64,000 bases of DNA from Schmidtea nova. Taxonomy: Eukaryota. Positions 16,760 through 46,361 of this stretch are shown in pieces. Positions within the stretch are counted from its first letter, which is position 1. Every line of letters begins with the position of its first letter. The notes beneath the pieces were generated by a model. The model saw only the letters and a list, made by a program, of their open reading frames with translations. It searched no databases and was not told where the DNA came from. The DNA is taken from the NCBI GenBank assembly GCA_044892505.1, contig CM097882.1, forward strand, positions 460,660,001 to 460,724,000. The letters are read 5' to 3'. The translations under genes and the position numbers were made by a program.

Positions 16760-16900
16760 TGATTGGCTAACCAACAACACCGGTTGAGTATAAATACTGA
16801 AGTCAAATCAGTATTTGACAATGTTATTTTTACCAAGTGTAACTTGCAGTTGAGCACTGAGAACATTGTAAATCCAACTTGAAGGAGAAATAAAAGGTAA
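16760..16900 (+). promoter_or_regulatory. Candidate LTR promoter (ATTGG box, TATAAATA, Inr-like TCAGTA) followed by AATAAA and a 5-prime splice donor
   Basis: GATTGG at about 16761, TATAAATA at 16789-16796, TCAGTA at 16808-16813, AATAAA at about 16889-16894, AG|GTAATT with GT at 16897. Other TATA-like sites exist at 17836 and about 19629, so U3/R/U5 limits are not established. Confidence 0.4.
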
Positions 16901-18536: not shown

Positions 18537-18728
18537 ATCGCAAGGAAATCGATCACTCGAAGGAATATTTGATGTGTATTAAAAATAAATGTATTCATTT
18601 TTTGGGTTTTGTTATGTCTTTGAATGTATGGAGCGATCTGAGAGCGAAACACCTGTTTGATAATAAAGATAGTGACTGGGAGAACAGACAAACCATACAT
18701 AACCCGATTAATTGTACATTTTACAGAT

Positions 18729-19292: not shown

Positions 19293-19682
19293 ATGTATAA
19301 AATGAATGACTTGACTCGTCTTGTCTGTGTGTAGAATGTCTGAAAATTGAATGGGACTAAAACCCGGATTCGTTTAAACTGCAGATATCTAAAAAGTAAA
19401 TTACCCTAGGACAATAGAAAGGAGCATAAGTGGGACCGAAAGAAAGCCACAGACACCTTCTAACGGTAGTGGTGGACCCGTGAATAAACAAGGGAATAGT
19501 AGCCGAAAGGTTGCTCACCTGCCTTGTCATTTCACAACGTTGACACAGCACCAACATGATGAGTAGTTAGGGATACATCATGGGTGTCAGCGGGGAAATG
19601 TTTTTATGTTGGCGAGATCACCCTAACATATAAAATCCTAAGGATCTCAGTTGTCAATCCAACCAACACACCAGCATAAATT

Positions 19683-19700
19683 TGGGGGCTCAGCCGGGAT
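19683..19700 (+). promoter_or_regulatory. Primer-binding site complementary to the tRNA-Pro 3-prime end
   Basis: TGGGGGCTCAGCCGGGAT, 6 nt after the LTR end. 16/18 identical to the canonical tRNA-Pro PBS TGGGGGCTCGTCCGGGAT. Confidence 0.88.
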
Positions 19701-20230: not shown

Positions 20231-20689
20231 ATGGAGAACAAAATAAAAGAAATGCAAACGTTTTTCGAGACAAATAACGAGACAATGGAGATAACAATGA
20301 GAAAGTTAAGACGACTCGAGGCAGGAGGATATCACAAACCGACAAACAGCACAGAAAAAGCGGAAATGATGATGAGCATAAGTAAGAATAAGATAACAGT
20401 GGATACAGCAACACGATATCAGTGGTATAGAGAAAGATTAAACAACCCTGAGATGAATATCGAGTGCCACAGGCTAGAACAACAAATTGCAACCAGACAC
20501 GATGAGTGGATAAGAATAACAACCGAACATACGAGACAATATCTGACGTGGTACATCTGTGAAATGAATAAGATACAGATAATGTTGTTGCCGTGTGGGC
20601 ATTTCCGATTCTGTAATGAGTGTAAAATAAATGAACGATGTCCTATGTGCAACCTTCCCGTATCCGAGAAAATAACAGTGTACTTGTAA
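20231..20689 (+). CDS. Small protein with a C-terminal IAP-type RING finger (no BIR), upstream of gag
   Basis: WYICEMNKIQIMLLPCGHFRFCNECKINERCPMCNLPVSEKITVYL matches the C-terminal RING pattern C..C......F.PCGH...C..C.....CP.C plus hydrophobic tail. The first Cys is replaced by Trp. Confidence 0.75.
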   Translation: MENKIKEMQTFFETNNETMEITMRKLRRLEAGGYHKPTNSTEKAEMMMSISKNKITVDTATRYQWYRERLNNPEMNIECHRLEQQIATRHDEWIRITTEHTRQYLTWYICEMNKIQIMLLPCGHFRFCNECKINERCPMCNLPVSEKITVYL

Positions 20690-29500: not shown

Positions 29501-31823
29501 GAATAATAAAATGGATTTCTTATTCCATAGAGGACAAGCCTCATTACAAAAAGTGTACTATGATCTGATAAATAACGATTGTATACTGAATCGGGAAATA
29601 TTAAAGACAAAGTTGGCCGTAGCGATTACGAATCCAGATAGCGCGATGCCGTTATTACCACTGAGAGAAGGACATTTCGGAAGAGTGGTCGGAGAAGCAA
29701 TGTACGTATACATTTGCGAAAAAACACACGCATCGCTAGCAGCAACAACGCAGTTGAAACCTGGACAATGTACAAATGAATTAGAAATCGATTATAAAGG
29801 AAAAGTACGATACGTTCAACCGGTGACGAGAATCACCAATCCACCAGGGTTTGAACCAAATCCATTCAACTGTAGTAATGCGTACGGACCACTTTATCAG
29901 AAGCCAGATGGCAAATGGGTTATGTTCCCAGGAAGAACCGAAGTATTAGCACCAAGAGAATTCGAACTAATGCAGTTGTCAAAGGATAGACAGTTCAGCG
30001 ACGTAGATGTCTCAAACAACGGAATCTATAGTCCAAAGGATTTAGAAGCAGCAAGACAGAATATACTATTCCCGGCAAGAAGAGAAGCATTACTGTCAAA
30101 TATCGTAACGATAACGGGAGGAACGAATTATCGAGAAGGACCAAATTACGAACTGCTGTTGTCACCGGCACATTTCAAGAAAGCCACAGAAAATATGATG
30201 AAGGCAATGTGGGGGAGATTCCTGATATTCGGACAAATGATGGCTGGAATACTGGGTGTTATATTGATAATACAAATCGTCAGAGTGATAATAACGCAAA
30301 TGTTAGCGTGTTTCGATATCTACAAAAGAGAAAAGAAAGTGAATTGGAAGATGGTAGTAGGATTTTTACCATTCCTTGCGAAAACGATGGTGTTACACGG
30401 ACACTCAAAAGACATACATCGAATAAAGAGGTTGTTGAAGATACTTGCAAAAATGAGAGGAACAAACGAAGATGTCGGAAGGAAATTCAAAAAGATAATG
30501 CAAGACGAGCAAGCAAGGCGACAATTAAAGAAAGAAAGGAAAGGATTATGGGAAAGAGTGAGAGGATATCGAACGCAGGATGACTCAAGCAATGATGATG
30601 ATGATGATGACAATCGAGGAGGACAAGCGAATATAAACCAGATTCCACAATACACCGAAAAGAGTGCAGTTGAGAATTGGAGATACAGCGCTCCACCTCA
30701 GTCAATGTATAACGAACCGATATACAAAGCGAAGCCGAATATGATGCAGATGATGCCGATGACAAGTATATACCCGATAATTCCAGAAGGATGCAAAGTA
30801 AAACGATGCAGAAGTGTAGACCCGTTGGAAGACACGCACACGATAGCGGTTATGTCCACAAATATGGGACCGATTTTAACAACAACCGTAGAAATAAACG
30901 GAAGAGAAATTGAAGCTATGATCGATACAGGCGCGAATATTTCGGCGATCGACATCAACTATATACCAGAGAAAAGCCAAGGAGAAATTGAGAAAACGAA
31001 TGTACATGTAATCGCGTGCAGCCAAGAGACAGTAGAAGTAGCCGGAAGATGGTTCGTAAAAATTAAGCATCGAGGTGCAGAAATCAACACGTACATCGCT
31101 GTAATACCATCGCTGAGTGTACCATGTATTATTGGAACTGACCTGATGCCAGACCTGTTCAAGGAAATCGTAATTGATCTAGGAGCAATGAAACTAAAAG
31201 ATAGAACAGGAAAAATCTGCAGGATGAAAGTTAAAGTGGCAAGTGCGGAACAAATAGTAGTACCAGCGAGACACGAAATGATGTGCTATGTCAAGATCGA
31301 TTCAACAATAAAGGGAGATATGATATTCGAACCAAGTAAGAAGTTCGAAGCAAAGAAAGAATTACCAATGGCAAGAGAATTGGTTACGATAAACCAAGAA
31401 GGAGAGATACCAATTAATCTGGTAAACTTCGATGAAGAGGACAAGATAATATACGAGAATGAGAGATTGGGTAAATTGACACCCATGTCCGAAATCGAAA
31501 TACCAGACAAGAACGAGAAAAGCAAAGACGAATTACCATGGAAAATCGACAGTGTGTTGTTAGACGAACGACAAAAAGAACAGTTACAAAAACTGTTGAT
31601 GGAATATAAAGATATATTCGCAGCATCCGATTTAGATCTGGGAACATGTGATGTAACATTACACACGATACCGTTGACGGACGAAACGCCAATCGCATTA
31701 CGACCATACAAACTGGCAGAAGCTCAAAAAGCAGTGGCAGAAGAAGAGGTACAAAAGATGTTAGATGCAGAGGTCATCGAACCTAGTTGCTCACCCTGGC
31801 AATTCCCAGTGGTGATGGTGTAA
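23598..31823 (+). CDS. Polyprotein part 1: Gag (capsid, 3 CCHC knuckles), ubiquitin-like domains, AT-hook, Bcl-2-like domain, class III envelope, aspartic protease, start of RT
   Basis: Capsid-like FNGDASRLDTFLKEF. Knuckles CQTCGKNGHWQQEC, CKLCGQKGHSENRC, CYTCGKTGHMSRDC. AT-hook KRPRGRPK; BH2-like YILRKGGWEKF; protease MIDTGANISAI. Ends at a TAA inside the RT motif PVVMV*KKDG. Confidence 0.92.
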   Translation: MSEHREDLREKFKGEPFNGDASRLDTFLKEFGIFVDICGWSAETLANRIPLYLKDSALDLYIEKRSGSSPPRTWEAIKEFFQQTFGINKVLNEAFDEFSARKQRRNESNAVYASELRKLAKLAFNRGSPVDEELMTALFVRGLRRPDIRAQVGCKGCKTVDEALEAANLFELHMAMNDMRITAVMGKTTEDEEQGKRNMNQSIPHSQRLFKEPPARKNNGYITVDPNGGNSYNDRQNRQCQTCGKNGHWQQECFQNVACKLCGQKGHSENRCYGKTCYTCGKTGHMSRDCNQQRSWSNSGNRPNYGNRPSYGNQGQQRNNPNSSANEASMKEAKLRQEVSRLHEIIESMAKGSQQAAQPKINMIQLIEAEAERENRESQQKHNQEWARVRREEEQVRQQRLQQLKKGNPRINMMRAMMEEKQQDESDELEVKEKRNEEQKQEEVNQEVETAEQSKKDEEAEKETNQEEEVRIKQRGMLVIMPNDHVWRFKYDVKEEVGRLFNKVNEMIPGVTKLPREAFLQTEDLPEVKLKMTDIWEDMGVTETKINVMIIREVEPEKIPPPVKHQTRISRIFKGKIRRRRMEEIEELEKRMGKAEITGTEKELIQEVSKNEARPTAHIGMLRYPRQELSDEEDDSEVSSLAGNMLKEPENEDKKMEVVETIETMSVKKEEIQKLMDNALEVIHNEEFIDGKRYRKFIRAVWQIKYKEWLQEREVRVIQEFIEKLLKEPLNEYVIQIWINECSPRIWIRNPMTDGIYRWVEDRLGSSYKDKFIYSENGLVRKGTHMIDTGIWPGEITTLSICNTKKEENLQGIVKEANTCYEMRIKPQLIEAKERILAENLNTMIEQIIQQIKKHRKELTKSEYENLKQCIENIRDTSQTRHSNFKTDKLIAKMGKEMFKRGEVSDLKITVRLPNEETRQIEVIPDSKVGEIVDVINETILQREREDEFEDDIAIKYKEHILNERDERRAYKIGIWDNYQTIHVIRMDDVPRATPRDEERKKKRQEDVMRKLRQIVEIYRNWQMKPEWETILGELDLNRRRLTPVEKQWDNKEKCWKVKRGVYEEDPEEEDRYELNTKRICMVTRRLLPTDLDGPETAVIWAELEKQKTSELIELLRGNTRGKRQTIKGLAQFIITNGEDITNLRKVAKAIAEYKRVNEWCPEQLDDVIKKWRNKEFAEETPQKIHLRIMYPNQRKEEFWVMLTEKVKSIKEKLMYELPFHLQHQGRSLDNSLEIWLTPVQLDLMNTLTVAQIVGQPLKFKEEKKTKGSMSTPSPMKSTMTPGTSSGQARTTPIKTRERTPPEAYDVDEILTDSDEAIEELTKLTQKPTANIFDRIIEMPITSPAEIDDQGVEQEVVIEMVNESEDEQEQPQFTQEMERWLEQRANEGRDVTEETGRATRFVETGTGMEKRPRGRPKIDPTTAIPKTREERRQEQWEICLKKLDKIAEIRGKEENQVCQGEEWLTKTIMDVLAIIDPELKNLWRINEPSTKARMLHNAIAPIMPELIKAKTKSNHLDWQGTTMLIKRLLNGAETDSKYLVAISYTIYNLLTLSRGSPKSSPMGRHIKNTAMIIEKEIEPYILRKGGWEKFIKENQTKEGSNVMRKKLEGVLREMENRQTMQGNGRSTLNLNSIIMMMLVWLLSTEGVTTFEVFDCDQMKLGEKYSLRGTEQCKDATPVELREIKKEQWYNVYQEAELIKTMVNECKVQKTRFAFYCGRGHYSAIVMPGTEREPIVLQGEDCEALFKHGEVTTRDKIKIKGKPGMMLQQTYYVAGRITGGEGYCQGETYPIFGVPATNLVVMDTYIVELKSYEAFFEPTTGEMKTLSMCKIDRSMCQTGMSTLVYKPKVNECQLQLLQGAKFDEIQGKTFQEEDDDDKARAKHLKEALENKRQLRPDHKEKRIEMRTTPTVLITTNQDVGMRFIKGKATLKCSTTVYETNYPGIYVSKQEVPNAKPKIDTMDIKLHLYVNNKMDFLFHRGQASLQKVYYDLINNDCILNREILKTKLAVAITNPDSAMPLLPLREGHFGRVVGEAMYVYICEKTHASLAATTQLKPGQCTNELEIDYKGKVRYVQPVTRITNPPGFEPNPFNCSNAYGPLYQKPDGKWVMFPGRTEVLAPREFELMQLSKDRQFSDVDVSNNGIYSPKDLEAARQNILFPARREALLSNIVTITGGTNYREGPNYELLLSPAHFKKATENMMKAMWGRFLIFGQMMAGILGVILIIQIVRVIITQMLACFDIYKREKKVNWKMVVGFLPFLAKTMVLHGHSKDIHRIKRLLKILAKMRGTNEDVGRKFKKIMQDEQARRQLKKERKGLWERVRGYRTQDDSSNDDDDDDNRGGQANINQIPQYTEKSAVENWRYSAPPQSMYNEPIYKAKPNMMQMMPMTSIYPIIPEGCKVKRCRSVDPLEDTHTIAVMSTNMGPILTTTVEINGREIEAMIDTGANISAIDINYIPEKSQGEIEKTNVHVIACSQETVEVAGRWFVKIKHRGAEINTYIAVIPSLSVPCIIGTDLMPDLFKEIVIDLGAMKLKDRTGKICRMKVKVASAEQIVVPARHEMMCYVKIDSTIKGDMIFEPSKKFEAKKELPMARELVTINQEGEIPINLVNFDEEDKIIYENERLGKLTPMSEIEIPDKNEKSKDELPWKIDSVLLDERQKEQLQKLLMEYKDIFAASDLDLGTCDVTLHTIPLTDETPIALRPYKLAEAQKAVAEEEVQKMLDAEVIEPSCSPWQFPVVMV
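27960..28380 (+). other. Bcl-2-like domain within the polyprotein
   Basis: BH2-like EIEPYILRKGGWEKFIKE (compare W I xxx GGW xx F). Weaker BH1-like segment IKRLLNGAETDSKYLVAISYTI at the expected spacing. Boundaries approximate. Confidence 0.6.
28488..30320 (+). other. Envelope glycoprotein, chuvirus-G / herpes-gB-like class III fusogen
   Basis: Signal-like SIIMMMLVWLLSTEG, then FEVFDC...EQC and a Cys-rich ectodomain. CILNREILKTKLAVAITNPD...GHFGRVVGEAMYVYIC and GIYSPKDLEAARQNILFPARR resemble chuvirus-type G motifs. TM segment FLIFGQMMAGILGVILIIQIV. Boundaries approximate. Confidence 0.8.
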
Positions 31824-34376
31824 AAGAAGGATGGAACTCAAAGATTCTGTATCGATTACAGACGATTGAATGCAGTTACGAAAAGAGATACGTACCCATT
31901 GCCAGACATAAACGAAATGTTGTTGACGTTACAAGGAGCAGCTTATTTCACGTCACTGGATTTAAAGAGCGGATATTGGCAGATCAAAATGAAAGACGAA
32001 GATAAAGAAAAGACAGCATTTACAATCGGACGAGATCTGTACCAATTCAAGAAAATGCCGTTTGGGTTAACAAACGCGCCAGCATCATTCCAGAGATGCA
32101 TGAATTTCGTAACACATGGCATAAAACAATGCATGGTGTATATCGACGATCTATTGATCTACTCCGCAACATTCGAAGATCACTTGCAAGACATCAGAAA
32201 TGTGTTCGTGAAATTAAGACAATGGAAACTGAAATTAAAGCCGTCAAAGTGCGATTGGGCAAAAGAAAAAGTGACATTCTTAGGTCACATTGTCTCAGCA
32301 AAAGGAAAAGAACCAGATCCAAGGAATATCGAAAAGGTCAAAGAATGTCCACCACCAAAGACAGTGACTCAAATACAAGAATTTTTGGGATTGTGTGGAT
32401 ATTATCGAAAGTTCATCAAGGACTATGCAGGAATATCAAAGCCAATGCAAGAATTAGTAAGACAAGACGTGTCGTTTGTGTGGGGAGCAGAGCAACAAGC
32501 AGCATATGAAATATTGCGAGACAAACTGATTACAGCACCAATATTGGTCCATCCAGATTTTAAGAAGCCATTTTTGTTGGCAACAGATGCAAGTGGATAC
32601 GCAGCAGGAGCAGTACTAGGTCAATTTGACGAAGAAGGCAAGGAAAGAGTAATCGGATATTACAGTCGAACCTTCAGGAAGCATGAAAAGAATTACTCAG
32701 TCACGGAAAGAGAAGCCTATGCGATAATATTGGCAATCAAGCATTTCAAATACCTATTGTGGGGTCATGAGATATATATTACAACGGATCATCAACCATT
32801 GGTATGGTTAGGTCAACATAAAGAATCATCAAGTAGATTGATGCGTTGGGCGATGCAACTACAAGAATACTCGCCATTCATAAAGTTTAAAGCAGGAAAA
32901 GCAAATGCAAACGCGGATTGCATGTCAAGGTTTACATTTCCAGAATTGGTGAACCTGAATGCTCTAAAAATATGTGCATTAATAGCGGAAGATTTGGATT
33001 TCAGCGAATTAAGGAAAGATCAACTCGAAGATGAGGAGTTGGGATTGATCAGCAAGTATTTGAAAGAAAGGGAAATAGAAATATTCGGCAAGAACCAAGT
33101 GTTGCGCGAACATATGCAGAAATACCAACATAGATACGTGATGGAAAAAGGATGGTTATTGATACAAGATGGAGAACGGAGATTAATGTGCTTACCTGCG
33201 AATAGGCGAAAGGAAATCATGACTCAATATCATGACGGAAAATTAGGCGGACATATGTCAGCAAAAAAGACAAGCGGAAGACTGAGACAAAAGTATTTTT
33301 GGCCAACCATGGAAGATGATGTGAAAGAATGGATAAAGAACTGCTTAACCTGTGCGACAAGAAAGAACGTCGGAACGAAGTGGAAAACACCACTAAAACC
33401 AATGCCAATACCTGCAGAACCGATGGCGACGATAGCAATGGACGTAGTTGGGCCATTGCCGGAAAGTTTAAAAGGAAATCAGTACATATTAGTAGTCACG
33501 GACTATCTAACAAAGTTCCCAGAAGCGTTCGCAATACCAGATCAAAAAGCAAAAACAGTCGCGAGAATATTGGTGGAAGAGATATGCTGCAGATACGGAA
33601 CACCAAAGAAAATCCTAACGGATCAAGGAACAAATTTCATGAGTGAAATATTGGACGAAGTTACGAATTACTTCAGAATCGCGAAATTACGAACATCCCC
33701 ATACCATCCACAAACGAACGGTCAAACAGAAAGGTTCAATGGAACATTGATACGCATGTTGTCGAATTACGTCAGTAAACATCAAACTGACTGGGACGAA
33801 TATATCAACTTATGTTTGATGGCATACAGAATGTCAATTCATGCGGCAACAAAGCTAAGTCCATTTCAACTGATGTACGGAAGAGATTGCAACTTACCGA
33901 TCGATTTGGAATACCAACCACCATTATCACAGTACATGGAGGTTGACGATTACGTGACGAAGTTCAAAGAAAGAATGCAAGAAATCTGGAAAACGGCGGA
34001 ACTGAACATCAAGTTCTATCAAGAAAGTTATAAGGATCTCCATGATCAGAAAAAGAATGTGAAAGCACATGATTTAAAAGTTGGAGATTGGGTGATAATT
34101 GAGACACCAGAGATAATACCCGGTACGGTCAAGAAACTCCAACGACCAGGCAAGGGGCCATACGAAATAACAACCGTAAACGAAAACAATGTGCGAGTAC
34201 GATTGGTGAACAATCCATTGGTAAGACCAATATACGTGAATGCATGTCGATGCAGGAAAATACCAAAGACAGCAACTCTATTACCAGAGAAACGGGTAAT
34301 GACAAGATCACAGACGGCGAGAATTAATATGTTGCGAGTACAACAAAAGCCGCAAACAAGTCTAGAAGACAAGTGA
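31824..34376 (+). CDS. Polyprotein part 2: RT, RNase H, integrase (same frame as part 1)
   Basis: RT: RFCIDYRRLN, DLKSGYWQI, MPFGLTNAPASFQR, YIDD. RNase H: TDASG, TDHQPL. IN: H..H/C..C, DVVGP, TDQGTNF, ERFNGTL, GPY. Confidence 0.96.
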   Translation, partial: KKDGTQRFCIDYRRLNAVTKRDTYPLPDINEMLLTLQGAAYFTSLDLKSGYWQIKMKDEDKEKTAFTIGRDLYQFKKMPFGLTNAPASFQRCMNFVTHGIKQCMVYIDDLLIYSATFEDHLQDIRNVFVKLRQWKLKLKPSKCDWAKEKVTFLGHIVSAKGKEPDPRNIEKVKECPPPKTVTQIQEFLGLCGYYRKFIKDYAGISKPMQELVRQDVSFVWGAEQQAAYEILRDKLITAPILVHPDFKKPFLLATDASGYAAGAVLGQFDEEGKERVIGYYSRTFRKHEKNYSVTEREAYAIILAIKHFKYLLWGHEIYITTDHQPLVWLGQHKESSSRLMRWAMQLQEYSPFIKFKAGKANANADCMSRFTFPELVNLNALKICALIAEDLDFSELRKDQLEDEELGLISKYLKEREIEIFGKNQVLREHMQKYQHRYVMEKGWLLIQDGERRLMCLPANRRKEIMTQYHDGKLGGHMSAKKTSGRLRQKYFWPTMEDDVKEWIKNCLTCATRKNVGTKWKTPLKPMPIPAEPMATIAMDVVGPLPESLKGNQYILVVTDYLTKFPEAFAIPDQKAKTVARILVEEICCRYGTPKKILTDQGTNFMSEILDEVTNYFRIAKLRTSPYHPQTNGQTERFNGTLIRMLSNYVSKHQTDWDEYINLCLMAYRMSIHAATKLSPFQLMYGRDCNLPIDLEYQPPLSQYMEVDDYVTKFKERMQEIWKTAELNIKFYQESYKDLHDQKKNVKAHDLKVGDWVIIETPEIIPGTVKKLQRPGKGPYEITTVNENNVRVRLVNNPLVRPIYVNACRCRKIPKTATLLPEKRVMTRSQTARINMLRVQQKPQTSLEDK

Positions 34377-34484: not shown

Positions 34485-37400
34485 ATGGACTATGCGAAGG
34501 ATAGAACAGCACATCCAATAACAAGAACGCTGCTAGAGGAAATCCCTCAAACTTTGAATCTACAAGACAAAGACGGTAATACCGCGTTGCACAATGCAAT
34601 CAAGCACAGTGGAAACGAAAAAGTGAAGGAAATTGTAGAGATGATACTCGAAGGTGGAGGAGAAATTGACAAAGTGAATTGGGAAGGAATCACTCCACTT
34701 ATGATGATGACGATTCACGGAAGAAACGATGAAATAATCAAGCTATTCGGAAACACCAGATCGAATTGGATGGCAAAAGATAAAGAAGGACGAACATTCT
34801 TGAATCATGCAATTGACAGAGCAAATCACCGAATACTGAAGTATATTATGGAAAATGCCACGTGGGAAATCGATGAACTAACCAGAGGATCTATCATGAA
34901 ACAAGCAATCGGGGTAAAGAACAGTAAAACCTGGAGAATATTGCTAAAGTGGAAACGACCAGAAGGAGATTCGTGGGTCATAGATTGCAATGAAGTATTC
35001 ACAAGAGGAGAAAATGCGTTACTGAAACATCTATTAGAAGTAACATACGATCCAAAAACACTTGCAGTGTTGATAGCGAGAGATACGTTACGGGTTAGCG
35101 AAAACCCAAGAGAATACAAGTTGGAAGACAGAAAGAAAGAACTATTCGGATTAATCAAGAAATGGTGTGATAAACAATGGAATCCGGATATGAGCTTCGA
35201 ACATTTCTATGACATCCAAAAGCAGCACAAAGAAATAAGCAAGCGATATAAAGAGCTGATAGAAGCATTGAAATATGGACAGTTCTTCAGACAAGCAGTG
35301 TATCAAGACCAACGAATGAAACAGATGCAAACGCGAATAAGAAGCAAAGCAGTGTTGTTCAATGCAAAAGCTGATTATCAAGAGAGATTAGACGCAATCG
35401 TAGCAAAAGCACAGGAAAAATTATCGGAATTCAAAGAGAATAAAAACTCGTTGGAAATACTAGGAGCGATTACAGAGAAAGTGCACAGATATGCACAAGG
35501 GGATTATAACGAGATCGACATAGAAACGATCAAAAATCAAATGCCAGTGGCATTCCTATTATCAAAGGATGGGAGATTGCCGATACACTGGGCATTACGT
35601 CGAAAGAAAGAAAACGAAGTGCTGGAAATAACGAAAGCGATGGTCAAGTGCGAAGCAGACATGAATACGGTTGACGATAACGGAGATACAATCATGATAA
35701 TCGCAGCAAGAAAGAAGACGAAATGGAAAGTGCTAAATGAATTATACGAAGCAGGAGCAAAAATCGAAGGGAAAAATGGAAAGAATAATTCCATCATAGA
35801 TATCGCAATACAGTGGAACAACTTCGAGATGATCAAGTTCATAAAGTCCATCAAGAGACAAGAGGACATAGAATACCTGGCAAATAACGTAAAGAAGTTC
35901 AGCCTGACAGTAATGATACACGACATAGAGAAAACAAGAGCATTATTAACATGGGTGAATCCGAGCACCAAGGAACAGGCGTTCAAGGTCAATGACCATA
36001 TGGAACAGAATCAGAATTGGTGTATCAGAAGCGCGTTATTAAGACACAAAAAGCCAGAGATAGTAGAAGAATTCTTAAAGAGAAGAGATGTGAAGTTCAC
36101 GAACAATCCAAAGGAACCCGAACGAACGGGAAGATGGAAAGACTTGTTCAGGAAGTATGTGAATGAGTGGGCAAAAGCCAAAGAAACGATCAAGCAAAGT
36201 AGACTAAAAGACATAGAACCATCCAAAGATATGGAAATACGGGAATTCGAGTCTAGCACACTCGCGGTTCAAGCGTATGAAAGATTGATTGAAGAAATTA
36301 ATGTCGAGGACGACATTTTCAAAGGACCAGGGGGTGGTTACAGAGATTTCGACGACAAAAGCAACAACGAAGAGAACAACGAAGACAAGGACAACAAAAG
36401 AACGGAGGATAATGAGAAAGAAAGACAAGAAGAACCGAAGTCAACGAGAAACGACAAGAAAGGAGAAGCAGAAGAACGAGAAAACAGTGGAACAAAAGAC
36501 GAACATGCGAATTATGGAAAACGAACAGGAAGTCTACTTTTGAGACCAGAAATGTTGTGTATTGCGATATTGATAACAATCATCGGACAAGGAGAAGCCA
36601 AGAAACAATACGTCACGCTAGAGATAATCAGAGGAAATGAAGTATACGAAAGAATATGCTGGAAAGAAAACCTGAGGAAAAACGATACGCTGAAGTGTAT
36701 ATTGTCAGATTTGAAGCGAGACGTCATCCAAATCAAAGGATTGGAGAAAGAAAAGTCATACATAATATGCGCAATAAAGCAGAGAGGAGAACCAAAAGCA
36801 CCTCAAGTAACTGCATGCCAATTATACAAAGCAACGGAAGCGCTGAAGATACAGAAATGGATTGAGAAAAGAAGCGAAGAGACAACGAGAAGAACAGAAG
36901 TGGAATCAGAGAAAGGGAAGAATCAATCTGAAGCAGAAGAAGGAATCAGAAACCGAACAGAGAAAGAAAGAATAACCAAAAATCCAGCGGGCAAATTAAC
37001 ATTCCAACCAGAATTGATATGTGTAGCATTAATATTAATCCTCATTAAGAGAATCATGGAGGACATAGATATCAGCGTGATGACGTTAGTAAACATCCAA
37101 GATCAACGAACAACGAATGGAAGATGTTGGGGACGAAACAATGAGGTAATTGGAATCAGCGAAACAAGAGAAATAGTAGAGGCGGAGACAAATGAGGAAA
37201 TAGAGATAACTGAAATGGAGACAGATAGAAAATGTGAACTATGTCTCATGGAAAAGGCAGCAAACGGAAACAGACCAGGAACAAGCGAGTGTAAAGTGTT
37301 CCAAGCAAAGGAGATAATTGAATTCCCAAAAAGAAAGAAACAAGATCAAGAAACGATTGCGAATGAAGTAGTAACCGTGGAGATAAAAAACATTGGTCGG

Positions 37401-38465
37401 AGAACAATTGGGATGTGTTGGAGAAAATACATCGGAGTATCGACCAGTCACGTACTACCGCAATGCAGAACGAGAGAACGAGGAATCCCGTTTCAACTAA
37501 ATGGATTCGAAGTCGGACAAGCCTACGAAATTTGCGTAATTCGAAGAATAAGAGAAATAATACAAAGAAGCCTGGAGTGCAAACTGTACAAGACGCCAGA
37601 GCAAATTAACGGAACAAGAACGATCGAAATGGGAAGAAGTCGACAGAGGAAAAGAAAGTCAAGAAGAACCACGACAGCCAACAGTCAAGGAGTTCAACAG
37701 GTAACAACAGAAAGGATGACAATAGAAAACGAACCGGAATCAACAACGTTGATAATATGGAAGATCCATAAAAAGGTCCTAGAAATCTGTTGGACATTAA
37801 TGCCAAACAGTATGGGAAAGTCTCCACGAAACTGTCAAAAGACATCAAATGACAAAAAGGAAACAATCGAGGTAGAAATGAGGAAGTTGAAAACAAATGC
37901 AGAATATGTAGTGTGTGCAATTGAAGAAGTGGATACACAAGGAAATCCACAAGAAAGGTGCGAAACCTACTACACACCGATAAAGAGGAGAATCAAAAAG
38001 TTAGAATTCCGAGAATTGAGTCAGAAGAGAGAACAAAACGAGAAGGAAGAAACAATACCAAATCAACAAGAAAAATGGGAACCAGAGAAAGTGATCGAAG
38101 AAGTCAGACGGAGACAACAACAATATGAACAATGGGAAGCGGAATGGAAAGGTCAATATGGCGTGATGATAAACCAAAGTGAGACTCCAAGAAGGAGCAT
38201 TGGGAAAACAATAATGGGATTAATCAGCATGGGAGTATTCATAGCGTGTATACCGCTGATAACGATCATGATAGTATGTTGGAGATATGGCATGAGAAAT
38301 AAGACCATAGCAGTAAAATGGCCGGACGTAAAGGTCACGAATTACAACATAAAACTACCAAAAGAAGTACGAGAAGAGCTGAAAAGACGATCAAAACACG
38401 AAGAGATGTGGGTACAGATCGAGGACGAGGAACTGTACGAAGGAAAACCAGTGATAGTTGTATAG
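34485..38465 (+). CDS. Ankyrin-repeat plus FN3-like membrane protein (same frame as pol; only a TGA at 34374 separates them)
   Basis: Ankyrin motifs DKDGNTALHNAI, GITPLMMM, GRTFLNHAI, GRLPIHWAL, NGDTIMIIAA. Two signal/TM-like segments, three repeats of (ICW...I.GL.....Y.ICAI) resembling FN3 strands, and a C-terminal TM segment. Confidence 0.8.
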   Translation: MDYAKDRTAHPITRTLLEEIPQTLNLQDKDGNTALHNAIKHSGNEKVKEIVEMILEGGGEIDKVNWEGITPLMMMTIHGRNDEIIKLFGNTRSNWMAKDKEGRTFLNHAIDRANHRILKYIMENATWEIDELTRGSIMKQAIGVKNSKTWRILLKWKRPEGDSWVIDCNEVFTRGENALLKHLLEVTYDPKTLAVLIARDTLRVSENPREYKLEDRKKELFGLIKKWCDKQWNPDMSFEHFYDIQKQHKEISKRYKELIEALKYGQFFRQAVYQDQRMKQMQTRIRSKAVLFNAKADYQERLDAIVAKAQEKLSEFKENKNSLEILGAITEKVHRYAQGDYNEIDIETIKNQMPVAFLLSKDGRLPIHWALRRKKENEVLEITKAMVKCEADMNTVDDNGDTIMIIAARKKTKWKVLNELYEAGAKIEGKNGKNNSIIDIAIQWNNFEMIKFIKSIKRQEDIEYLANNVKKFSLTVMIHDIEKTRALLTWVNPSTKEQAFKVNDHMEQNQNWCIRSALLRHKKPEIVEEFLKRRDVKFTNNPKEPERTGRWKDLFRKYVNEWAKAKETIKQSRLKDIEPSKDMEIREFESSTLAVQAYERLIEEINVEDDIFKGPGGGYRDFDDKSNNEENNEDKDNKRTEDNEKERQEEPKSTRNDKKGEAEERENSGTKDEHANYGKRTGSLLLRPEMLCIAILITIIGQGEAKKQYVTLEIIRGNEVYERICWKENLRKNDTLKCILSDLKRDVIQIKGLEKEKSYIICAIKQRGEPKAPQVTACQLYKATEALKIQKWIEKRSEETTRRTEVESEKGKNQSEAEEGIRNRTEKERITKNPAGKLTFQPELICVALILILIKRIMEDIDISVMTLVNIQDQRTTNGRCWGRNNEVIGISETREIVEAETNEEIEITEMETDRKCELCLMEKAANGNRPGTSECKVFQAKEIIEFPKRKKQDQETIANEVVTVEIKNIGRRTIGMCWRKYIGVSTSHVLPQCRTRERGIPFQLNGFEVGQAYEICVIRRIREIIQRSLECKLYKTPEQINGTRTIEMGRSRQRKRKSRRTTTANSQGVQQVTTERMTIENEPESTTLIIWKIHKKVLEICWTLMPNSMGKSPRNCQKTSNDKKETIEVEMRKLKTNAEYVVCAIEEVDTQGNPQERCETYYTPIKRRIKKLEFRELSQKREQNEKEETIPNQQEKWEPEKVIEEVRRRQQQYEQWEAEWKGQYGVMINQSETPRRSIGKTIMGLISMGVFIACIPLITIMIVCWRYGMRNKTIAVKWPDVKVTNYNIKLPKEVREELKRRSKHEEMWVQIEDEELYEGKPVIVV

Positions 38466-38588: not shown

Positions 38589-38939
38589 ATGAACCAAGAA
38601 AATATCGAGATGTCAATGATGACAAGATGGAAAGTGCAATGTGACCTGCTAGCCAGAACAGTAAATGAATTACAGAGCCAGTTGACGGCCAAAACGCAAT
38701 TATTAACCGAGAGCTACAACTGTAATTTTGAAGCAATGAACAAAATCGAGACCCAACAAATGCAGATAAACGAATTACAGAACGAGAATCGAACATTAAA
38801 TGAAGTAAACAATTGGCAAGCAGAGGAAATTGACAGATTAGCGAGACATGAAGAGGAAGAGATACCAGATAGTTGGACGAGCTGGATTGTAAATGAGATA
38901 GACGTGTATCCAGAGCCAGATTCAACTGAGGATGTATAG
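38589..38939 (+). CDS. Small coiled-coil protein, unknown function
   Basis: Intact 116-aa ORF with heptad-like LARTVNELQSQL...QINELQNENRTL. Acceptor-like CTAG 8 nt before the ATG. Confidence 0.6.
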   Translation: MNQENIEMSMMTRWKVQCDLLARTVNELQSQLTAKTQLLTESYNCNFEAMNKIETQQMQINELQNENRTLNEVNNWQAEEIDRLARHEEEEIPDSWTSWIVNEIDVYPEPDSTEDV

Positions 38940-39031: not shown

Positions 39032-40444
39032 ATGAGAGCAGAAAGTGAAGCAGACCACCAAGCAATCGAAATTCTAAGAAGAGAAAATCGACAATGGGGA
39101 GTAAATGTGACGTGTGTAAAGTGTAAAAATCTACTGTTAAAACCGAGGCAAACGGAATGTGGATGCAGGATGTGCACCAAGTGTATATTGCAAATAATCA
39201 GTGAAAGTGAGACAAGAAAGTGTCCAGAGTGTGACGATAAACTACTGATCAACGAGACGAAACCAGACAAAGCAATACAAAAGGAGATCTGGAAGATAAA
39301 AACAGAGTGTATAAACCAACCATGTGAATGGAAAGGACCAATAATTGAGTTAAGACAACATCTGGGAAAATGCGAAAACAAGAAAGCGATATGTGAAAAG
39401 TGTCAACAGACGATAACAATCAAGCAGTCGAAAAATCATAAGGATGAGTGCAAAGCAGAGATAATAGAGTGTCAATACTGCGAACAAAGAGAGACAAGAG
39501 AGATAATCGAAACAGAACATCTCAACGTAGCAGAAGAGAAAGTGTGCGGAAAATTCAGAGGAATTTGTCCAAGTAATTGCGGAGCCGGAGAAGAGATGAT
39601 GCTGAAAGAACATTGGGAACAATGCGAGTCAAGACCAAGAAAGTGCGTATGGAGTAAACAAGGATGTGCAGTAAAGAAAACGAGCAAAGAGATGAAAGAA
39701 CATTTAGAAACAGAGACGGTACAACACGCAGAGATGCTAACAGAAAATTTAAGCGGAATGGAGCAAACCATACAGAAACTGGGAAAGGAAATTGAATCTC
39801 AGAGGATAATGACGGAGTTATTACTGGGAACGAGAGAGCAATTCGAGCTCACCAGAGAGAAAATGATGGAGAAAATCAAGGTCATAGAGACGCTAGTAAG
39901 AGAAGTAAATGTACGACATCAAATGTGGGTACGAGATACAGAGGATATCGAGAATTTACCGGTCGCACCATACGTATGGAAAATCAAGAACTTCAACGAA
40001 AAGTTCGCAGCAGCAAAAGCAGGAAGTCAAGTGTCGGTAACAAGTCCACCATTCTATCTGTGGAAAAATGGATACAAAGTTCGAATGAGAATTTATCCAA
40101 ATGGAGATGGATCAGGAAAGGAAACGCATGTGTCATTATTCTTTGCGTTGTGTAAAGGTGGTTACGACGACATATTAGAATGGCCGCTAGAGACAAAGGC
40201 TATAATGAGAGTGAGAAACTCGAAAGAAACAATAGCGAGAGTATTCAAAATTGATGGTAAGCACGAAGCTTACAAAAGACCGACCACAGAATGTTCATTA
40301 GCGACTGGAGAACCAAAATTCATACCACACCAAACAATGTGGGAAATGTTGTACGACGACAACCTATACGTAGAGTTGGAGATCGAAAAGAAAACAAGTA
40401 CAACAGTGATGAACACGAAGTCAACGAAAGGATGGTTAGAGTAG
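39032..40444 (+). CDS. TRAF-family protein (RING, TRAF zinc fingers, coiled coil, MATH), intronless
   Basis: RING CVKC...CGCRMCTKC...CPEC; zinc fingers CINQPCEW...HLGKC. MATH domain YVWKIKNF...SPPFYLWKNGYKVRMRIYPNGDGSGKETHVSLFFALCKGGYDDILEWP. Confidence 0.92.
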   Translation: MRAESEADHQAIEILRRENRQWGVNVTCVKCKNLLLKPRQTECGCRMCTKCILQIISESETRKCPECDDKLLINETKPDKAIQKEIWKIKTECINQPCEWKGPIIELRQHLGKCENKKAICEKCQQTITIKQSKNHKDECKAEIIECQYCEQRETREIIETEHLNVAEEKVCGKFRGICPSNCGAGEEMMLKEHWEQCESRPRKCVWSKQGCAVKKTSKEMKEHLETETVQHAEMLTENLSGMEQTIQKLGKEIESQRIMTELLLGTREQFELTREKMMEKIKVIETLVREVNVRHQMWVRDTEDIENLPVAPYVWKIKNFNEKFAAAKAGSQVSVTSPPFYLWKNGYKVRMRIYPNGDGSGKETHVSLFFALCKGGYDDILEWPLETKAIMRVRNSKETIARVFKIDGKHEAYKRPTTECSLATGEPKFIPHQTMWEMLYDDNLYVELEIEKKTSTTVMNTKSTKGWLE

Positions 40445-40533: not shown

Positions 40534-41694
40534 ATGGAAAACGCAAATGAACAGGTAATCGAAGATGAAACGAGAAACGAGATGGCGAACGAACGAGAAG
40601 CAATAAAAAGAGAAATCGAAAGAAGATGTAAAGAGAAAGTAGAACAAAGAACCAGGGAATTACACGAAGTGATGACAAACAATTTCTACGAGAAACTGAA
40701 ATGCGAAAGACAAATGGAGTTATATCAGCTAGAACTCGAGGAAGTGAATAAAGAGATAGTACAACTGACAACACAAATAGAGAAGCTAAAAGGAATAAAT
40801 GTACGAAGTCGACAAAAGATAGAAGAGGTCTATCAGTTGATGAGGAAACAAGCAGAACATTATAAAAATATGATGAAAACGCGAAGAGAAGAGAGGGAGA
40901 AACAAGAGGAAAAGATGGAGGTAAAAATACTAGCAATCAAGGCTCAAGCGAGACATTGGAAAATGGAGTCGAAACGAGTGTATAAAGAAGCCAAAGAGAT
41001 AATCAGAAAGACAGCATACAGCGAAGATTGGAAACTGTATCAAGAGATAGACGAGTTGAAAGAAGAATTGGAACAGAGAAAGCGACAAGAACAAGCAAAC
41101 AAAGAATGGAGTCGAAAACGACAGCGATTTATTCGAGAACAGGCAAAGGAACTAAAGAAAACGCAATGGCAAATACAGACGATAAACGGAGAAATGCGAG
41201 GCATTAGACAGAAAGAGGAAGCTGAAAGACAAAAGTTGATCAGGGAAAAAGAAAGTCTGGAAAGAGATGTAAATGGCTACCAAGGAGTAGTGACTCAAAA
41301 GAAAATGGAATTGAAAGCAGTGAAAGAAAGACATGCGGAATCAAACCGAGCGTATGAGGAAAATATAACGAATTTGACGAAAGAAAACGAAGAACTGAAA
41401 CAGCAGATAATAACCCTGAAAGCAGAGAAAGAAACCATAGAAGTAGAAACCGAACCAACAGAAACAGAAGCCCTGAAGAGAAAAGTGGAAGAAATGGAAA
41501 GACAAATCGAAACTCTGAGCGAACAATCAGACTACATGGAGTATCTGTTAGATGAAGAGATACAAATCTCTCGAACGTATCAAGATGAAATTGCAATGTG
41601 GCGAAGCAGAGTGGTGTGGTTACCGTTTATACCACCACCACCAATGGAGCTCCAAGATGAAGGGTTCCATGAACCAGAGGAAACAGATGTGTAA
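40534..41694 (+). CDS. Long coiled-coil protein with a Pro-rich/acidic tail ending ETDV
   Basis: Intact 386-aa E/K/R/Q-rich heptad ORF. TTACAG acceptor-like site 1 nt before the ATG. Confidence 0.7.
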   Translation: MENANEQVIEDETRNEMANEREAIKREIERRCKEKVEQRTRELHEVMTNNFYEKLKCERQMELYQLELEEVNKEIVQLTTQIEKLKGINVRSRQKIEEVYQLMRKQAEHYKNMMKTRREEREKQEEKMEVKILAIKAQARHWKMESKRVYKEAKEIIRKTAYSEDWKLYQEIDELKEELEQRKRQEQANKEWSRKRQRFIREQAKELKKTQWQIQTINGEMRGIRQKEEAERQKLIREKESLERDVNGYQGVVTQKKMELKAVKERHAESNRAYEENITNLTKENEELKQQIITLKAEKETIEVETEPTETEALKRKVEEMERQIETLSEQSDYMEYLLDEEIQISRTYQDEIAMWRSRVVWLPFIPPPPMELQDEGFHEPEETDV

Positions 41695-41767: not shown

Positions 41768-42292
41768 ATGATCTGGCTCAAAACCCTACCAATCCTAACG
41801 ATTATGTTAACTACAACAATAATGAACTGCTCAACAACCGAAATCCAAAGAACCCTGTCAAATGAGATATCCCAGGAGATCGAAAAACAACTAAACGAAG
41901 TCAGAGGAGACTTGAAACAATTAATACGACAAATGCGAATCAGTCATGATCATCGCAAACCCTTACAAACCCTATTCAATCAAATCGAGAAGATCCGAGA
42001 AATCCATAAAACCTTTCAAGATCACCTAAAGCCAATCAAAGGGCAAACCCAAATCGAATCCGAAATCCGAAACAGATGGATCATCGTGGGAATAGTCACA
42101 ATGACAATACTGACAATCATCCTGATCATCGTGATTACGTATACCCTATATCGAATCAGAAGCCTCAAACAACAACAAACGATAATGTGTAGATGTGCTA
42201 AAAGAGAAGCAAAAACCCAACAAAGGATGAGAAGTCATCTACGACAAATCCAAGCCCGATACGAAATGCAGTCAACCAGTGAAAGGACCTGA
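41768..42292 (+). CDS. Small type-I membrane protein (signal peptide, coiled coil, TM, basic tail)
   Basis: N-terminal MIWLKTLPILTIMLTTTIMNCS; TM WIIVGIVTMTILTIILIIVITYTL followed by a basic tail. Confidence 0.7.
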   Translation: MIWLKTLPILTIMLTTTIMNCSTTEIQRTLSNEISQEIEKQLNEVRGDLKQLIRQMRISHDHRKPLQTLFNQIEKIREIHKTFQDHLKPIKGQTQIESEIRNRWIIVGIVTMTILTIILIIVITYTLYRIRSLKQQQTIMCRCAKREAKTQQRMRSHLRQIQARYEMQSTSERT

Positions 42293-42497: not shown

Positions 42498-44009
42498 TGT
42501 TGGGCCAGCCAAATCGAGCAGCATCTGAAAATAATACACAATCAATAAAATAAATTAAATACAGAATAACAACAAAATAAATTACCAACACCAAAGCGTA
42601 ACAAAATAGGCGGCAACATCTAAAAGAAATAAAATATTAATCAAAACAACAAAAATCTTCAAAACTCACTCATGCGAAGCAGATAAAATTGGAATATGAC
42701 AGCGCGTGGGCGGATGTCACCGAAGACCTAAAGCAAAATCAAATAAAAATTAAATCATACAAAAAATAAACTTACCGCATGATTAACCAAACAAATCGGC
42801 AAGTTAAGTTAGGCAGCAAAAAGCCGACAACATGAAAAATGAAGCAAACATACACACATACTCGATGCTGATTGGCTAACCAACAACACCGGTTGAGTAT
42901 AAATACTGAAGTCAAATCAGTATTTGACAATGTTATTTTTACCAAGTGTAACTTGCAGTTGAGCACTGAGAACATTGTAAATCCAACTTGAAGGAGAAAT
43001 AAAAGGTAATTGTTGTGTGTTAGATTTTTACTTTAAACCCTCATAATTATAATGGTTAACCATATTAAAATCCATAAGGTTTCCGGAGGCCTAACAGCCT
43101 GACGGATTCTCTGGCCTCTCAGCGCAACACAATCTTTCGGTTGTGAGGTGCTGATGCGGCGGGACCATAGGTGTATTAAATATTTGGAAAGCGGAAGGGG
43201 TTAAATGCACATAGGGTATCGAGTAAGACCTAATGAACATGAACGAAATCAAGGTGGAAATGATCTAATATAAACGTTATGCATCACGATGATAGGGTAT
43301 CGAGTATAAACTGGTAGTCGTAAACGAGCGTAAAGTGAAGCCCGTTTTGTAGGGAGGATATATATCGTGGCGAAGTCTAGGCGAGGGATAGACGTGTAGA
43401 AAATAAAATTGGTGTAGATGAATTAGATGACGACAAGGGTAGGTATATGTCGACATTAGCGCGTACGAGTTCGGGCATAGTGAACCTAGTATCAAGGGTT
43501 AAGTCAGTTGTGTTTAGTCGCCAGGATAGATGATAAATAAACTACAGGCATTGAGAACCGATAAAATGATGAACCCCAGTGAGTAAGGACCCCAGGAACT
43601 TGCAAGAATTACCCGACATGGTATGATCATTACTAGTTAAATGAGGAAGTAATCGAAAACGACTGATGAGATTGGATGTGATTAAATAGCATTATCGATA
43701 AATAAAAACTGTTAAAGTTGAGTGATTGAACCTGATTGTTGAAAATTAAGTATAATAGTGATCTGATTTATAAATGCAACCAATCGTGCGTAGCGGAATC
43801 GTCGAAAATAAAACGCGTAGCACATTAACTTCAAGCTACCATCTAACACGACCCACGTCAAGTCCACAATGATTCCGGCAACAATCTAGAAGGTACCCCT
43901 CGGACCTACAGACCTTAAAAATTTAAGACGGGTGGGTTGACTAATATAAATAGGCCCGTTATACCATAGAATCCATAGTTAACAAACAACCATCTTCTTT
44001 AGAAATACT

Positions 44010-44645
44010 ATGGTGAAACTAGAGAATCTCCAAAGGAAGTCGATGATCGCGCACCCGATAAAGATAGAGGACACCATCCTTCGTAAGAAACGGCGCACCC
44101 GCTCCGTCATCCGACCAAATACGAACCCAAACATCAGAGGAGAGAACGAAGCACCTCGAAAGGTTGCAGAAGTATCACGTCGCCACCTACGACGGTGGAT
44201 GAGGGCGCACATGAGCTCGGCAGCTAGTACCCCAGCTTGTGCGTTCGGACTACAGTTGCGGTGGGAAGGAGACACCGATTGGGTACCCTCCTCGGATCAT
44301 AGCAAGCCGGAGAATCCCCGATGGTTCTATCAATTCTGCGATGAGTTACAGCAACCCCGCTGGCTGCTAAGCACCGGAATGATGTCCGGAAAAGAGCTAC
44401 ATCAACTCGGATACACGCTGCTAGACAGGCCTCGGTGTGGCGACACTGGGGAAGTCTTCGTTTATTCAAACGCGCCAGGAAGCGTGTCCTTGGACCAACA
44501 CCCCGAGCCCAAAGACCATCGTCTCTGGGAGGTATTCATCTTTCGGGACAAGTTAAGTTGGAGCCCCGCCCCGGAGTTCTATTACGAAAGTGGAATCCGT
44601 CGTGATGAGAACACGGCCGACCAGGAATTGCGACCCTTCATCTAA
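44010..44645 (+). CDS. LTR-encoded ORF-A (3-prime LTR copy)
   Basis: Protein identical to that of 17901-18536. Confidence 0.65.
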   Translation: MVKLENLQRKSMIAHPIKIEDTILRKKRRTRSVIRPNTNPNIRGENEAPRKVAEVSRRHLRRWMRAHMSSAASTPACAFGLQLRWEGDTDWVPSSDHSKPENPRWFYQFCDELQQPRWLLSTGMMSGKELHQLGYTLLDRPRCGDTGEVFVYSNAPGSVSLDQHPEPKDHRLWEVFIFRDKLSWSPAPEFYYESGIRRDENTADQELRPFI

Positions 44646-44837
44646 ATCGCAAGGAAATCGATCACTCGAAGGAATATTTGATGTGTATTAAAAATAAATG
44701 TATTCATTTTTTGGGTTTTGTTATGTCTTTGAATGTATGGAGCGATCTGAGAGCGAAACACCTGTTTGATAATAAAGATAGTGACTGGGAGAACAGACAA
44801 ACCATACATAACCCGATTAATTGTACATTTTACAGAT

Positions 44838-45401
44838 ATGAGTGAACACCCAACTAGGAACTACAAACAAGAGGCTAAAGAGCACAAAGTACGATCGCAA
44901 GTCCTAGAAAACCGCTTGCGACAGCTAAACGAAGAGCACCAGCGGATTAAAGCCACGTGGTTCAACCCAGAGAGGGTTAAAACCATCCTGCAAGCCAGAT
45001 ACAGGGCGGAACGAACAATCGACGAGCAAGCTAGGGAGGTAGCAGCACTAAAGATGGAGCTGTCGAATTACTTGAGGGCATCAACCCAGGAATTTATCAA
45101 CGAGCAATTACGCCCAGTGATCAGGGCTAGCACTTTTAACCGATGGGTGAACTCAATATCGATGACAACAAGTACCCAAACGGAAATAGAAACCATCCCA
45201 ATCACAACTACCCCAACATCCCCAATAATTCAGGAAGGCTCGAAACGAACAAAGAGACGGAATCGCTTGGGAGCGAAAAAGCGTAGGGAGAGACGCGCGT
45301 ATGCAGATCGCGTAGGAATAGAGGTAGACTTGCTCAGTGGTCTATCTGAGCAAGAACTACTAAATGTAATCCGACCCTCTGTATTATTAAACTATAAATA
45401 A
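44838..45401 (+). CDS. LTR-encoded ORF-B (3-prime LTR copy)
   Basis: One amino-acid difference from the 5-prime copy (IKDTW versus IKATW). Confidence 0.75.
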   Translation: MSEHPTRNYKQEAKEHKVRSQVLENRLRQLNEEHQRIKATWFNPERVKTILQARYRAERTIDEQAREVAALKMELSNYLRASTQEFINEQLRPVIRASTFNRWVNSISMTTSTQTEIETIPITTTPTSPIIQEGSKRTKRRNRLGAKKRRERRAYADRVGIEVDLLSGLSEQELLNVIRPSVLLNYK

Positions 45402-46361
45402 ATGTATAAAATGAATGACTTGACTCGTCTTGTCTGTGTGTAGAATGTCTGAAAATTGAATGGGACTAAAACCCGGATTCGTTTAAACTGCAGATATCTA
45501 AAAAGTAAATTACCCTAGGACAATAGAAAGGAGCATAAGTGGGACCGAAAGAAAGCCACAGACACCTTCTAACGGTAGTGGTGGACCCGTGAATAAACAA
45601 GGGAATAGTAGCCGAAAGGTTGCTCACCTGCCTTGTCATTTCACAACGTTGACACAGCACCAACATGATGAGTAGTTAGGGATACATCATGGGTGTCAGC
45701 GGGGAAATGTTTTTATGTTGGCGAGATCACCCTAACATATAAAATCCTAAGGATCTCAGTTGTACATCTAACCAACACACCAGCAAGTTGATGGAAATGT
45801 TATGGGTATCGGAGCTTCAGGAATGATGTAAGGAGTAAGGATAGTAAATCCGTTCGTGGTGTGCATGCGTATGATTGTATGTGATTACATGTAATTGTTT
45901 GTGTCTGTATGTTGACTTGAATGTTGGATGAAAATGAGTGAGATTTCTTTGGATGTATGATGTTAACTAACATGTCTGTGTGGAATTTTTGGTATGGTTT
46001 GCTTGTGTGTATATAATTGTTGTATGCTATTGAATGATACTGTGTATGTGTGTATATTGTATTTTATATGTATGTTGCTTGTGTATTAGTATGGAAGGTG
46101 CTATTGAATGAAATGGATGTAATTTTTTGCAAATAGGGATGCGTTATGATTTTGAGATATCGTGGGGGTAGTTATAGTATACTATATATAAATTATATAA
46201 AATATTTTTAGAATTAAAATAATAATAATAATTTTTATAATATCTTTTATAAATTTTAAATTTATAATTTTATGAAAGTAATATAATAATAAAATTTCTA
46301 ATTTTTATAATATTCATTTTTAAATTCAAATTTTTATATTTTAAGAATATATATATATATA

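Follow-up and report, generated by a model that had tools for sequence, protein, structure and literature searches.

The 64,000-nucleotide stretch of Schmidtea nova DNA analysed here (hereafter the window) carries, at positions 39032–40444 of the forward strand, an open reading frame that runs uninterrupted from ATG to stop and encodes a full-length TRAF protein of 470 residues. The gene lies within a giant LTR retroelement of the Burro type, where it is a selected cargo under purifying selection, and I infer that it was captured once, long ago, before five families of these elements split. I consider it somewhat probable that this accessory cargo, together with the Bcl-2-like and IAP-type genes of the same elements, serves as a retargeted ubiquitin adaptor that would keep element-expressing host cells alive.

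A whole TRAF gene in a Burro-type element

Window positions 16389–45785 form a Ty3/gypsy LTR element of 29,397 bp, bounded by two 3288-bp LTRs (16389–19676 and 42498–45785) with 6 mismatches between them, and flanked on both sides by the 4-bp target-site duplication AGTT. The TRAF frame lies between these LTRs, as expected from the earlier proposal that it is carried inside a retrotransposon. The features of the element are as follows:

16389..19676, + strand: 5' LTR, 3288 bp, TG...CA, with the AGTT target-site duplication directly before it
17901..19292, + strand: two ORFs within the LTR (211 and 187 aa), occurring a second time at 44010–45401
19683..19699, + strand: primer-binding site, identical in families B–F
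20231..20689, + strand: 152-aa ORF with an IAP-type RING at its end (Pfam and solved-structure matches)
23598..31823, + strand: polyprotein part 1, with Gag and its CCHC knuckles, a Bcl-2-like domain, a mononegavirus-type fusion glycoprotein (env) and a protease (by Pfam; Bcl-2 by fold)
27858..28427, + strand: Bcl-2-like domain in the polyprotein (fold comparison)
31917..34376, + strand: polyprotein part 2, with RT, RNase H and integrase
34485..38465, + strand: polyprotein part 3, with ankyrin repeats, hydrophobic segments and a short C-terminal tail
38466–38588, 38940–39031, 40445–40533 and 41695–41767: accessory-ORF spacers with TGTAAATA-like words; the same spacers are found in families B, C, D and F
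38589..38939, + strand: 116-aa ORF (omega 0.08), in each of the five families the immediate 5' neighbour of the TRAF
39032..40444, + strand: TRAF accessory gene
39113..39232, + strand: TRAF RING (residues 28–67); none of its eight Cys varies among 39 copies
39308..39727, + strand: TRAF zinc-finger region (residues 93–232)
39716..39952, + strand: TRAF-N coiled-coil helix (residues 229–307; AlphaFold2 model and heptads)
39971..40384, + strand: MATH/TRAF-C domain (residues 314–451)
40534..41694, + strand: 386-aa ORF, charged, probably coiled-coil, 3' of the TRAF in all five families (omega 0.19)
41768..42292, + strand: 174-aa ORF with hydrophobic segments (ORF list)
42498..45785, + strand: 3' LTR, with AGTT directly after it

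The primer-binding site is presumably of the tRNA-Pro type. Part 1 of the polyprotein terminates at an in-frame stop that is missing from five of the eight other copies fetched for this stretch (in two of the remaining three the stretch was not returned, and in one the frame is broken elsewhere), and part 2 terminates at a second in-frame stop, at a junction where the frame is open in 31 of the 33 other copies spanning it. The two stops of the window copy interrupt what most of its relatives keep as a single polyprotein frame. For the Bcl-2-like stretch all 44 listed Foldseek rows belong to the Bcl-2 family, with weak E-values (best 0.014); Pfam and phmmer gave no match, and ESM Atlas no usable lead. 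The RING of the 152-aa ORF is closest, among solved structures, to those of cIAP2 and XIAP (E about 1e-4), and a BIR domain is absent from this ORF. Repeats in part 3 resemble fibronectin type III, as judged by eye. Pfam matched no family for the LTR-internal ORFs or for the 386-aa ORF, and for the latter ESM Atlas likewise gave no usable lead.

Four accessory ORFs follow the ankyrin part, the TRAF being the second. Words of the form TGTA.ATA occur 6 times in 381 intergenic bases and 0 times in 17,442 coding bases, and in all five families an AG precedes most of the accessory start codons at a distance of no more than about 8 bases. Both features may reflect spliced or trans-spliced sub-genomic RNAs, with the spacers as possible splice or trans-splice acceptors; the TGTA.ATA word also fits Pumilio or Forkhead sites. 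The leader ahead of gag (window 21500–22730) contains a 19-bp tandem array and spaced 47–49-bp repeats, and the end of the 386-aa ORF (41650–41694) carries C-terminal DEGFxE and E-T/S-x-V/I motifs that are kept in families A–D and similar in F; these are reminiscent of an acidic degron of the beta-TrCP type and of a PDZ-binding C-terminus.

Planarian genomes carry giant Ty3/gypsy LTR elements called Burro or GYPSM1 (Jurka 2007 and Grohme 2018, summarised in PMC6431247). The window element matches that description in its layout: Burro elements are about 30 kb long with multi-kb LTRs, hold env in frame between gag and the protease, keep the order RT–RNase H–integrase, encode a single polyprotein with BCL2-like and ankyrin domains (the former recognised here by fold only, with weak E-values), and carry TRAF MATH and IAP-type cargo (PMC6431247). 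Burro1 differs in having only a MATH domain inside its polyprotein, as does family E here, whereas part 1 of the window polyprotein has no MATH by Pfam and the window element carries the whole RING–finger–coil–MATH gene as a separate ORF 3' of pol. MATH_TRAF_C is described in Burro1 and, in a Dugesia tigrina element, on an upstream accessory ORF for which the text gives no full architecture (PMC6431247), in contrast to the downstream position found here, the comparison being with the published text.

That Burro elements can carry the MATH domain of a TRAF has thus been published before (PMC6431247), and megalocytiviruses are known to encode a viral TRAF built of RING, coiled coil and MATH (PMC3352826), both of which lessen the surprise that the first-pass annotation had attached to a viral-type whole TRAF. 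The megalocytivirus protein, ISKNV ORF111L, is likewise a RING–coiled-coil–MATH protein of host lineage encoded by a mobile genome, but it has 296 residues, no zinc-finger array is described for it, its bearer is a fish DNA virus, and it is pro-apoptotic through TRADD and caspase 8 (PMC3352826). The literature searched holds no description of a whole TRAF in such elements, of its selection or of its single origin; Grohme 2018, Jurka 2007, Lee 2026 or their supplements may cover these. What had been annotated as a domain in a known kind of giant element thus becomes a testable gene, whole, selected and apparently older than the five-family split.

The architecture of the protein is that of the TRAF family, with an N-terminal RING, zinc fingers, a TRAF-N coiled coil before the MATH, and a C-terminal MATH/TRAF-C domain. 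Pfam recognises MATH at residues 314–451 (E 6.5e-27, above the curated cut-off), zf-TRAF at residues 170–224 (E 2e-5, below the cut-off) and a TRAF-type RING, TRAF3_RING, at residues 28–67 (E 1e-4, also below the cut-off). An AlphaFold2 model from a 47-row alignment (mean pLDDT 89) shows RING and finger elements, a single 79-residue helix at 229–307 and a MATH sandwich; in its best heptad register the helix is 65% hydrophobic at a/d positions, against 35% overall. Top Foldseek matches of the model are TRAF1/2/3/5 (E about 1e-17), and by sequence the N-terminal part matches solved structures of TRAF2/5/6 (the TRAF6 and TRAF2 RINGs included) and the C-terminal part those of TRAF1–6. These results agree with the complete TRAF gene first recognised from the letters. 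Its A-rich composition had also been noticed: A at third codon positions stands at 0.46 in the TRAF, 0.44–0.52 in the other element ORFs and 0.30–0.35 in six host TRAFs, so that in base composition the gene follows its element and differs from the host TRAFs.

Intact copies and purifying selection

A genome search with the MATH part gave 2434 candidates, of which 150 were scored. Identity is at least 90% for 132 of these, 110 of which lie in a stop-free frame of 455–485 aa (one has a stop inside the match, and two are partial matches), and none of the 18 matches under 90% has a whole frame. Taking every third match of the top 120, I obtained 40 family-A copies, in which the TRAF is full in 38 and intact in 36 of these, pol is full in 31 and intact in 25, and the ankyrin part is full in 33 and intact in 19. 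Locating copies through protein similarity biases the sample towards intact ones, and the bias is strongest for families B, D and F, where the top-ranked matches were taken; the part of the TRAF outside the MATH domain still shows a shared pN/pS of 0.11.

TRAF variants common to at least three family-A copies comprise 52 nonsynonymous and 133 synonymous changes, or a pN/pS of 0.09 (0.02 for pol), and for single-copy variants the ratio is 0.26 for the TRAF and 0.18 for pol. A codon model gives omega values of 0.14 for the TRAF, 0.05 for pol and 0.17 for the ankyrin part, with TRAF values of 0.12, 0.18 and 0.09 in families B, D and F. All four domains (RING, fingers, coil and MATH) are constrained, with a shared pN/pS of 0.08–0.12, and only the 15-residue tail is without constraint. 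Disruption or neutral drift in most copies, either of which would have told against the claim of a maintained gene, is ruled out by these figures.

Older copies present another picture, with none of nine intact and a pN/pS of 0.60 for private and 0.10 for shared variants: older insertions decay near-neutrally. Sampled copies being mostly intact and old ones decayed, selection acts on the replicating lineages, and insertions decay afterwards. This bears on a host-benefit mutualism, in which inserted copies would supply TRAF to stem cells and selection would act through host fitness. Such an arrangement has a precedent in the Burro1 IAP, as relayed by PMC13465017, and would fit the low pN/pS of even single-copy variants and the intact TRAF retained by copies that have lost RT and integrase (families C, F and some D). 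I nevertheless regard it as quite improbable, given the decay of old insertions, the lack of whole frames among the more divergent matches and the fact that no fixed domesticated locus was seen; a low single-copy pN/pS is moreover expected from unsampled lineages, as the value for pol illustrates. Five loci (L157, L169, L201, L203 and L204) have internal deletions that remove RT, RNase H and integrase and leave the cargo in place.

Five families, a probable single capture and the host TRAFs

Whole TRAFs are found in five element families (A, B, C, D and F, the window copy belonging to A), with 35–51% identity between them. Relative to A, the TRAF is 50% identical in family B (22 of 24 loci intact), 46% in C, 46% in D (9 of 10 intact) and 35% in F (18 of 19 intact), where all 150 scored matches are mutually 98–100% identical. 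Between A and B, pol is 85% identical and the TRAF 50%. The order 116-aa ORF, TRAF, 386-aa-like ORF is kept in all five.

In the TRAF tree the five families and four unnamed database proteins of similar make-up form a single clade (98/97), the sister of which consists of two unnamed proteins, P0002 and P0095 (90/91), all within a planarian-type TRAF clade (97/98). The TRAF branching D,(A,(B,C)), with F as the outer family, is repeated in a protease tree, a quick tree of 7 rows in which E and F are outside. One TRAF clade, with branching that matches the protease tree, argues for the single ancient capture proposed above. The nesting of element TRAFs among host TRAFs is not forced: host monophyly excluding the elements is not rejected (p-AU 0.325), and the element rows combine long branches with an unusual composition. 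A RING motif with Cys in place of His (CGC, against the CGH of most non-flatworm TRAFs) is found in all five element families, in 6 of 6 host loci and in none of the 8 outgroup rows in which the motif was found. The view that the gene is host-derived and long resident in the element is upheld by the clade, the shared CGC RING and the spread over five families.

The closest host TRAF is only 32% identical to the element TRAF, in a host survey that is incomplete because element copies fill the search rankings. A capture from the host locus L081 was also considered, and that grouping is rejected (p-AU 5e-6). A neutral passenger or a recent one-off capture has practically no probability left in view of this distance, of the rejected grouping and of omega values of 0.09–0.18 in four families; capture of a near-identical host gene, which the first-pass annotation had listed against its own claim, is thereby excluded.

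The same annotation had called the gene a retrocopy and expected introns in its host paralogues. Six full-length host TRAF loci (L081, L086, L108, L177, L170 and L185) all have unbroken coding frames, and missing introns therefore carry no information on the mode of capture. The hallmarks of a processed retrocopy are absent: there is no intron loss relative to these six host TRAFs, and no parent could be identified at that best identity in the incomplete survey. Of the phrase "retrocopied host gene", the host-derived part stands on the tree and the CGC RING, and the retrocopy part, argued from intronlessness, was rejected; capture via RNA is nonetheless plausible for a retroelement. The named proteins closest to the host TRAFs come from Dugesia and Dendrocoelum, which would by itself point to a triclad host. 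With planarian host TRAF2/3-like proteins (D. japonica TRAF2A, D. lacteum TRAF-4, and L081, L086, L108 and L177) the element TRAF shares architecture, length, CGC RING, uninterrupted frame and clade, but it is only about 30% identical to them, has A-rich codons and a changed MATH groove, and exists as hundreds of mobile copies, against a few loci.

Two shorter host TRAFs, L205 (G000:C2 near 443.28 Mb) and L220, have the RING and MATH in separate exons, group elsewhere in the tree, and belong to a tandem array of short two-exon genes. Ten dispersed matches (L082–L085 and L087–L092, one of which may be a duplicate contig) match host TRAF L081 in its N-terminal half alone, at 78–95% identity and with common flanking DNA, which points to another mobile capture, independent of the first and limited to part of a TRAF. 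An expansion of planarian TRAFs has been reported (PMC6109357), and several hundred element-borne copies in one genome bear on how that expansion is counted and on the risk of off-target effects in TRAF RNAi.

Family E is Burro1-like and has MATH alone, within a frame of roughly 5000 aa. This MATH groups with the element TRAFs (98/97), which suggests that it may be a relocated remnant of a whole TRAF; the grouping includes two unnamed proteins, a grouping of elements only has a p-AU of 0.25, and long branches may attract. Separate captures of the Burro1-type MATH and the whole TRAF are accordingly not favoured. In three family-D copies the ankyrin part is 77–82% identical to that of family A, against 38% in a full D copy, a mosaic that suggests recombination between families.

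The MATH groove and possible functions

The peptide groove of the MATH domain combines conserved and replaced positions (TRAF2 numbering was carried over by hand through a TRAF2-like protein, P0121). Equivalents of TRAF2 R393, Y395, F410 and F447 are retained, and those of R393 and Y395, which make up hot spot 3 (here R353 and Y355), are invariant in 39 of 39 copies. At hot spot 2 the serine triad, which grips the Px(Q/E)E motifs of receptors in TRAF1/2/3/5 (PMC6125299, from which the hot spots are taken), is replaced by H411-E412-A413, again invariant in 39 of 39 copies, and the equivalent of TRAF2 C469 is E427. Host TRAFs have S-A-C (L086) and S-T-C (L081) at the triad positions, and the triad is replaced in element families A–D and F. 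The simplest reading would be a changed specificity, and the invariance of the replaced residues suggests that the groove has gained another partner and not simply lost its function.

Classic dominant-negative TRAFs have no RING. The RING and finger ligands of the element TRAF are invariant or nearly so among 39 copies and as constrained as the MATH, which weakens the dominant-negative half of the earlier proposal of a mimic or dominant-negative regulator of innate signalling. A decoy or antagonist that joins host TRAF trimers, or sequesters E2s or kinases, and thereby dampens responses through TAK1/p38/JNK or TBK1 is kept as a rival: the triad for receptor motifs is gone, planarian TRAFs are TBK1-induced and active in infection (PMC4993586, PMC13563047), and an env-bearing element would presumably profit from blocked immunity. 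With the ligands intact and a new partner suggested by the groove, I consider it unlikely, if still a serious contender. NF-kB, which had been named as the target, is doubtful, as according to PMC13563047 no clear homologue of NF-kB was identified in S. mediterranea; a genome search for Rel homology domains gave no match here but carries no weight, since its control matched nowhere either.

The TRAF might alternatively be an adaptor internal to the element, binding its ankyrin/membrane protein or the products of neighbouring ORFs for signalling or particle assembly. The constant order of the small ORF, the TRAF and the 386-aa ORF, and a groove that is altered yet conserved, would suit this, but gene order alone is weak evidence, and a PxExx-acidic motif seen by eye in the membrane protein tail of family A is absent from B and C, making such a role improbable as well.

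The preferred reading, in which the TRAF promotes cell survival, is suggested by its companions: the Bcl-2-like and IAP-type cargo of the same elements, namely the Bcl-2 fold and IAP-type RING ORF of the window element and, in family F, an IAP with BIR and RING after the TRAF. The element would have acquired, in a single ancient event, a planarian TRAF that was already intronless; the gene would be expressed from a spliced or trans-spliced sub-genomic RNA, and its product would form a trimer, recruit an E2 or an IAP ligase, and have a pro-survival output. RNAi of a planarian TRAF increases cleaved caspase-3 (PMC7586133), and the Burro1 IAP shields stem cells from apoptosis, as relayed by PMC13465017. 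That gene, B-IAP (Lee et al. 2026, via PMC13465017), is also an apoptosis regulator captured by this element group, comparable to the BIR and RING protein beside the family-F TRAF; it is, however, another gene, the function of which was tested there. The TRAF accompanies IAP and Bcl-2 cargo in an animal that is amenable to RNAi and in which stem-cell protection has been reported for one Burro cargo gene.

Several observations count against the survival reading. The IAP of the window family is a RING remnant without BIR, so that a complex like that of TRAF2 and cIAP cannot be built from the window element alone, and the E-values of the Bcl-2 match are weak. Apoptosis is induced, not blocked, by ISKNV ORF111L, the one viral TRAF that has been characterised (PMC3352826). 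In planarians traf2-1 has an inhibitory role in the pathology of infection (PMC4993586), and an immune role thus fits equally well.

A broader version of the survival reading, which I hold to be rather unlikely as a whole, would have the Burro lineage take up a complete survival module, once and early. The TRAF and its re-cut groove would work together with an IAP ligase, a Bcl-2 protein and the element's membrane protein as a self-contained pathway on spliced sub-genomic RNAs; the Burro1 MATH would be a relocated remnant of this TRAF, and element TRAFs would account for part of the reported planarian TRAF/MATH expansion.

The family-F IAP (L247:8566-9732) has 389 residues with BIR and RING and directly follows the TRAF; the family is very young and numbers at least 150 copies. 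It was identified through Pfam and PDB, with cIAP1 as best match, and a homologue search found none at E 1e-8 among 834 candidates. Two family-F copies examined across this stretch are without RT, integrase and env.

Two further features lie outside the Burro-type element. Window positions 10501–13283 hold an RT-encoding ORF (11241–13118) between 202-bp inverted repeats, matched by Pfam RVT_1 only; I take its C-terminus to be GIY-YIG-like and the ORF to be Penelope-like. At 61653–64000, 386-bp inverted repeats surround a 471-aa ORF with RING motifs (62059–63474); this may be a DNA transposon with a RING gene as cargo.
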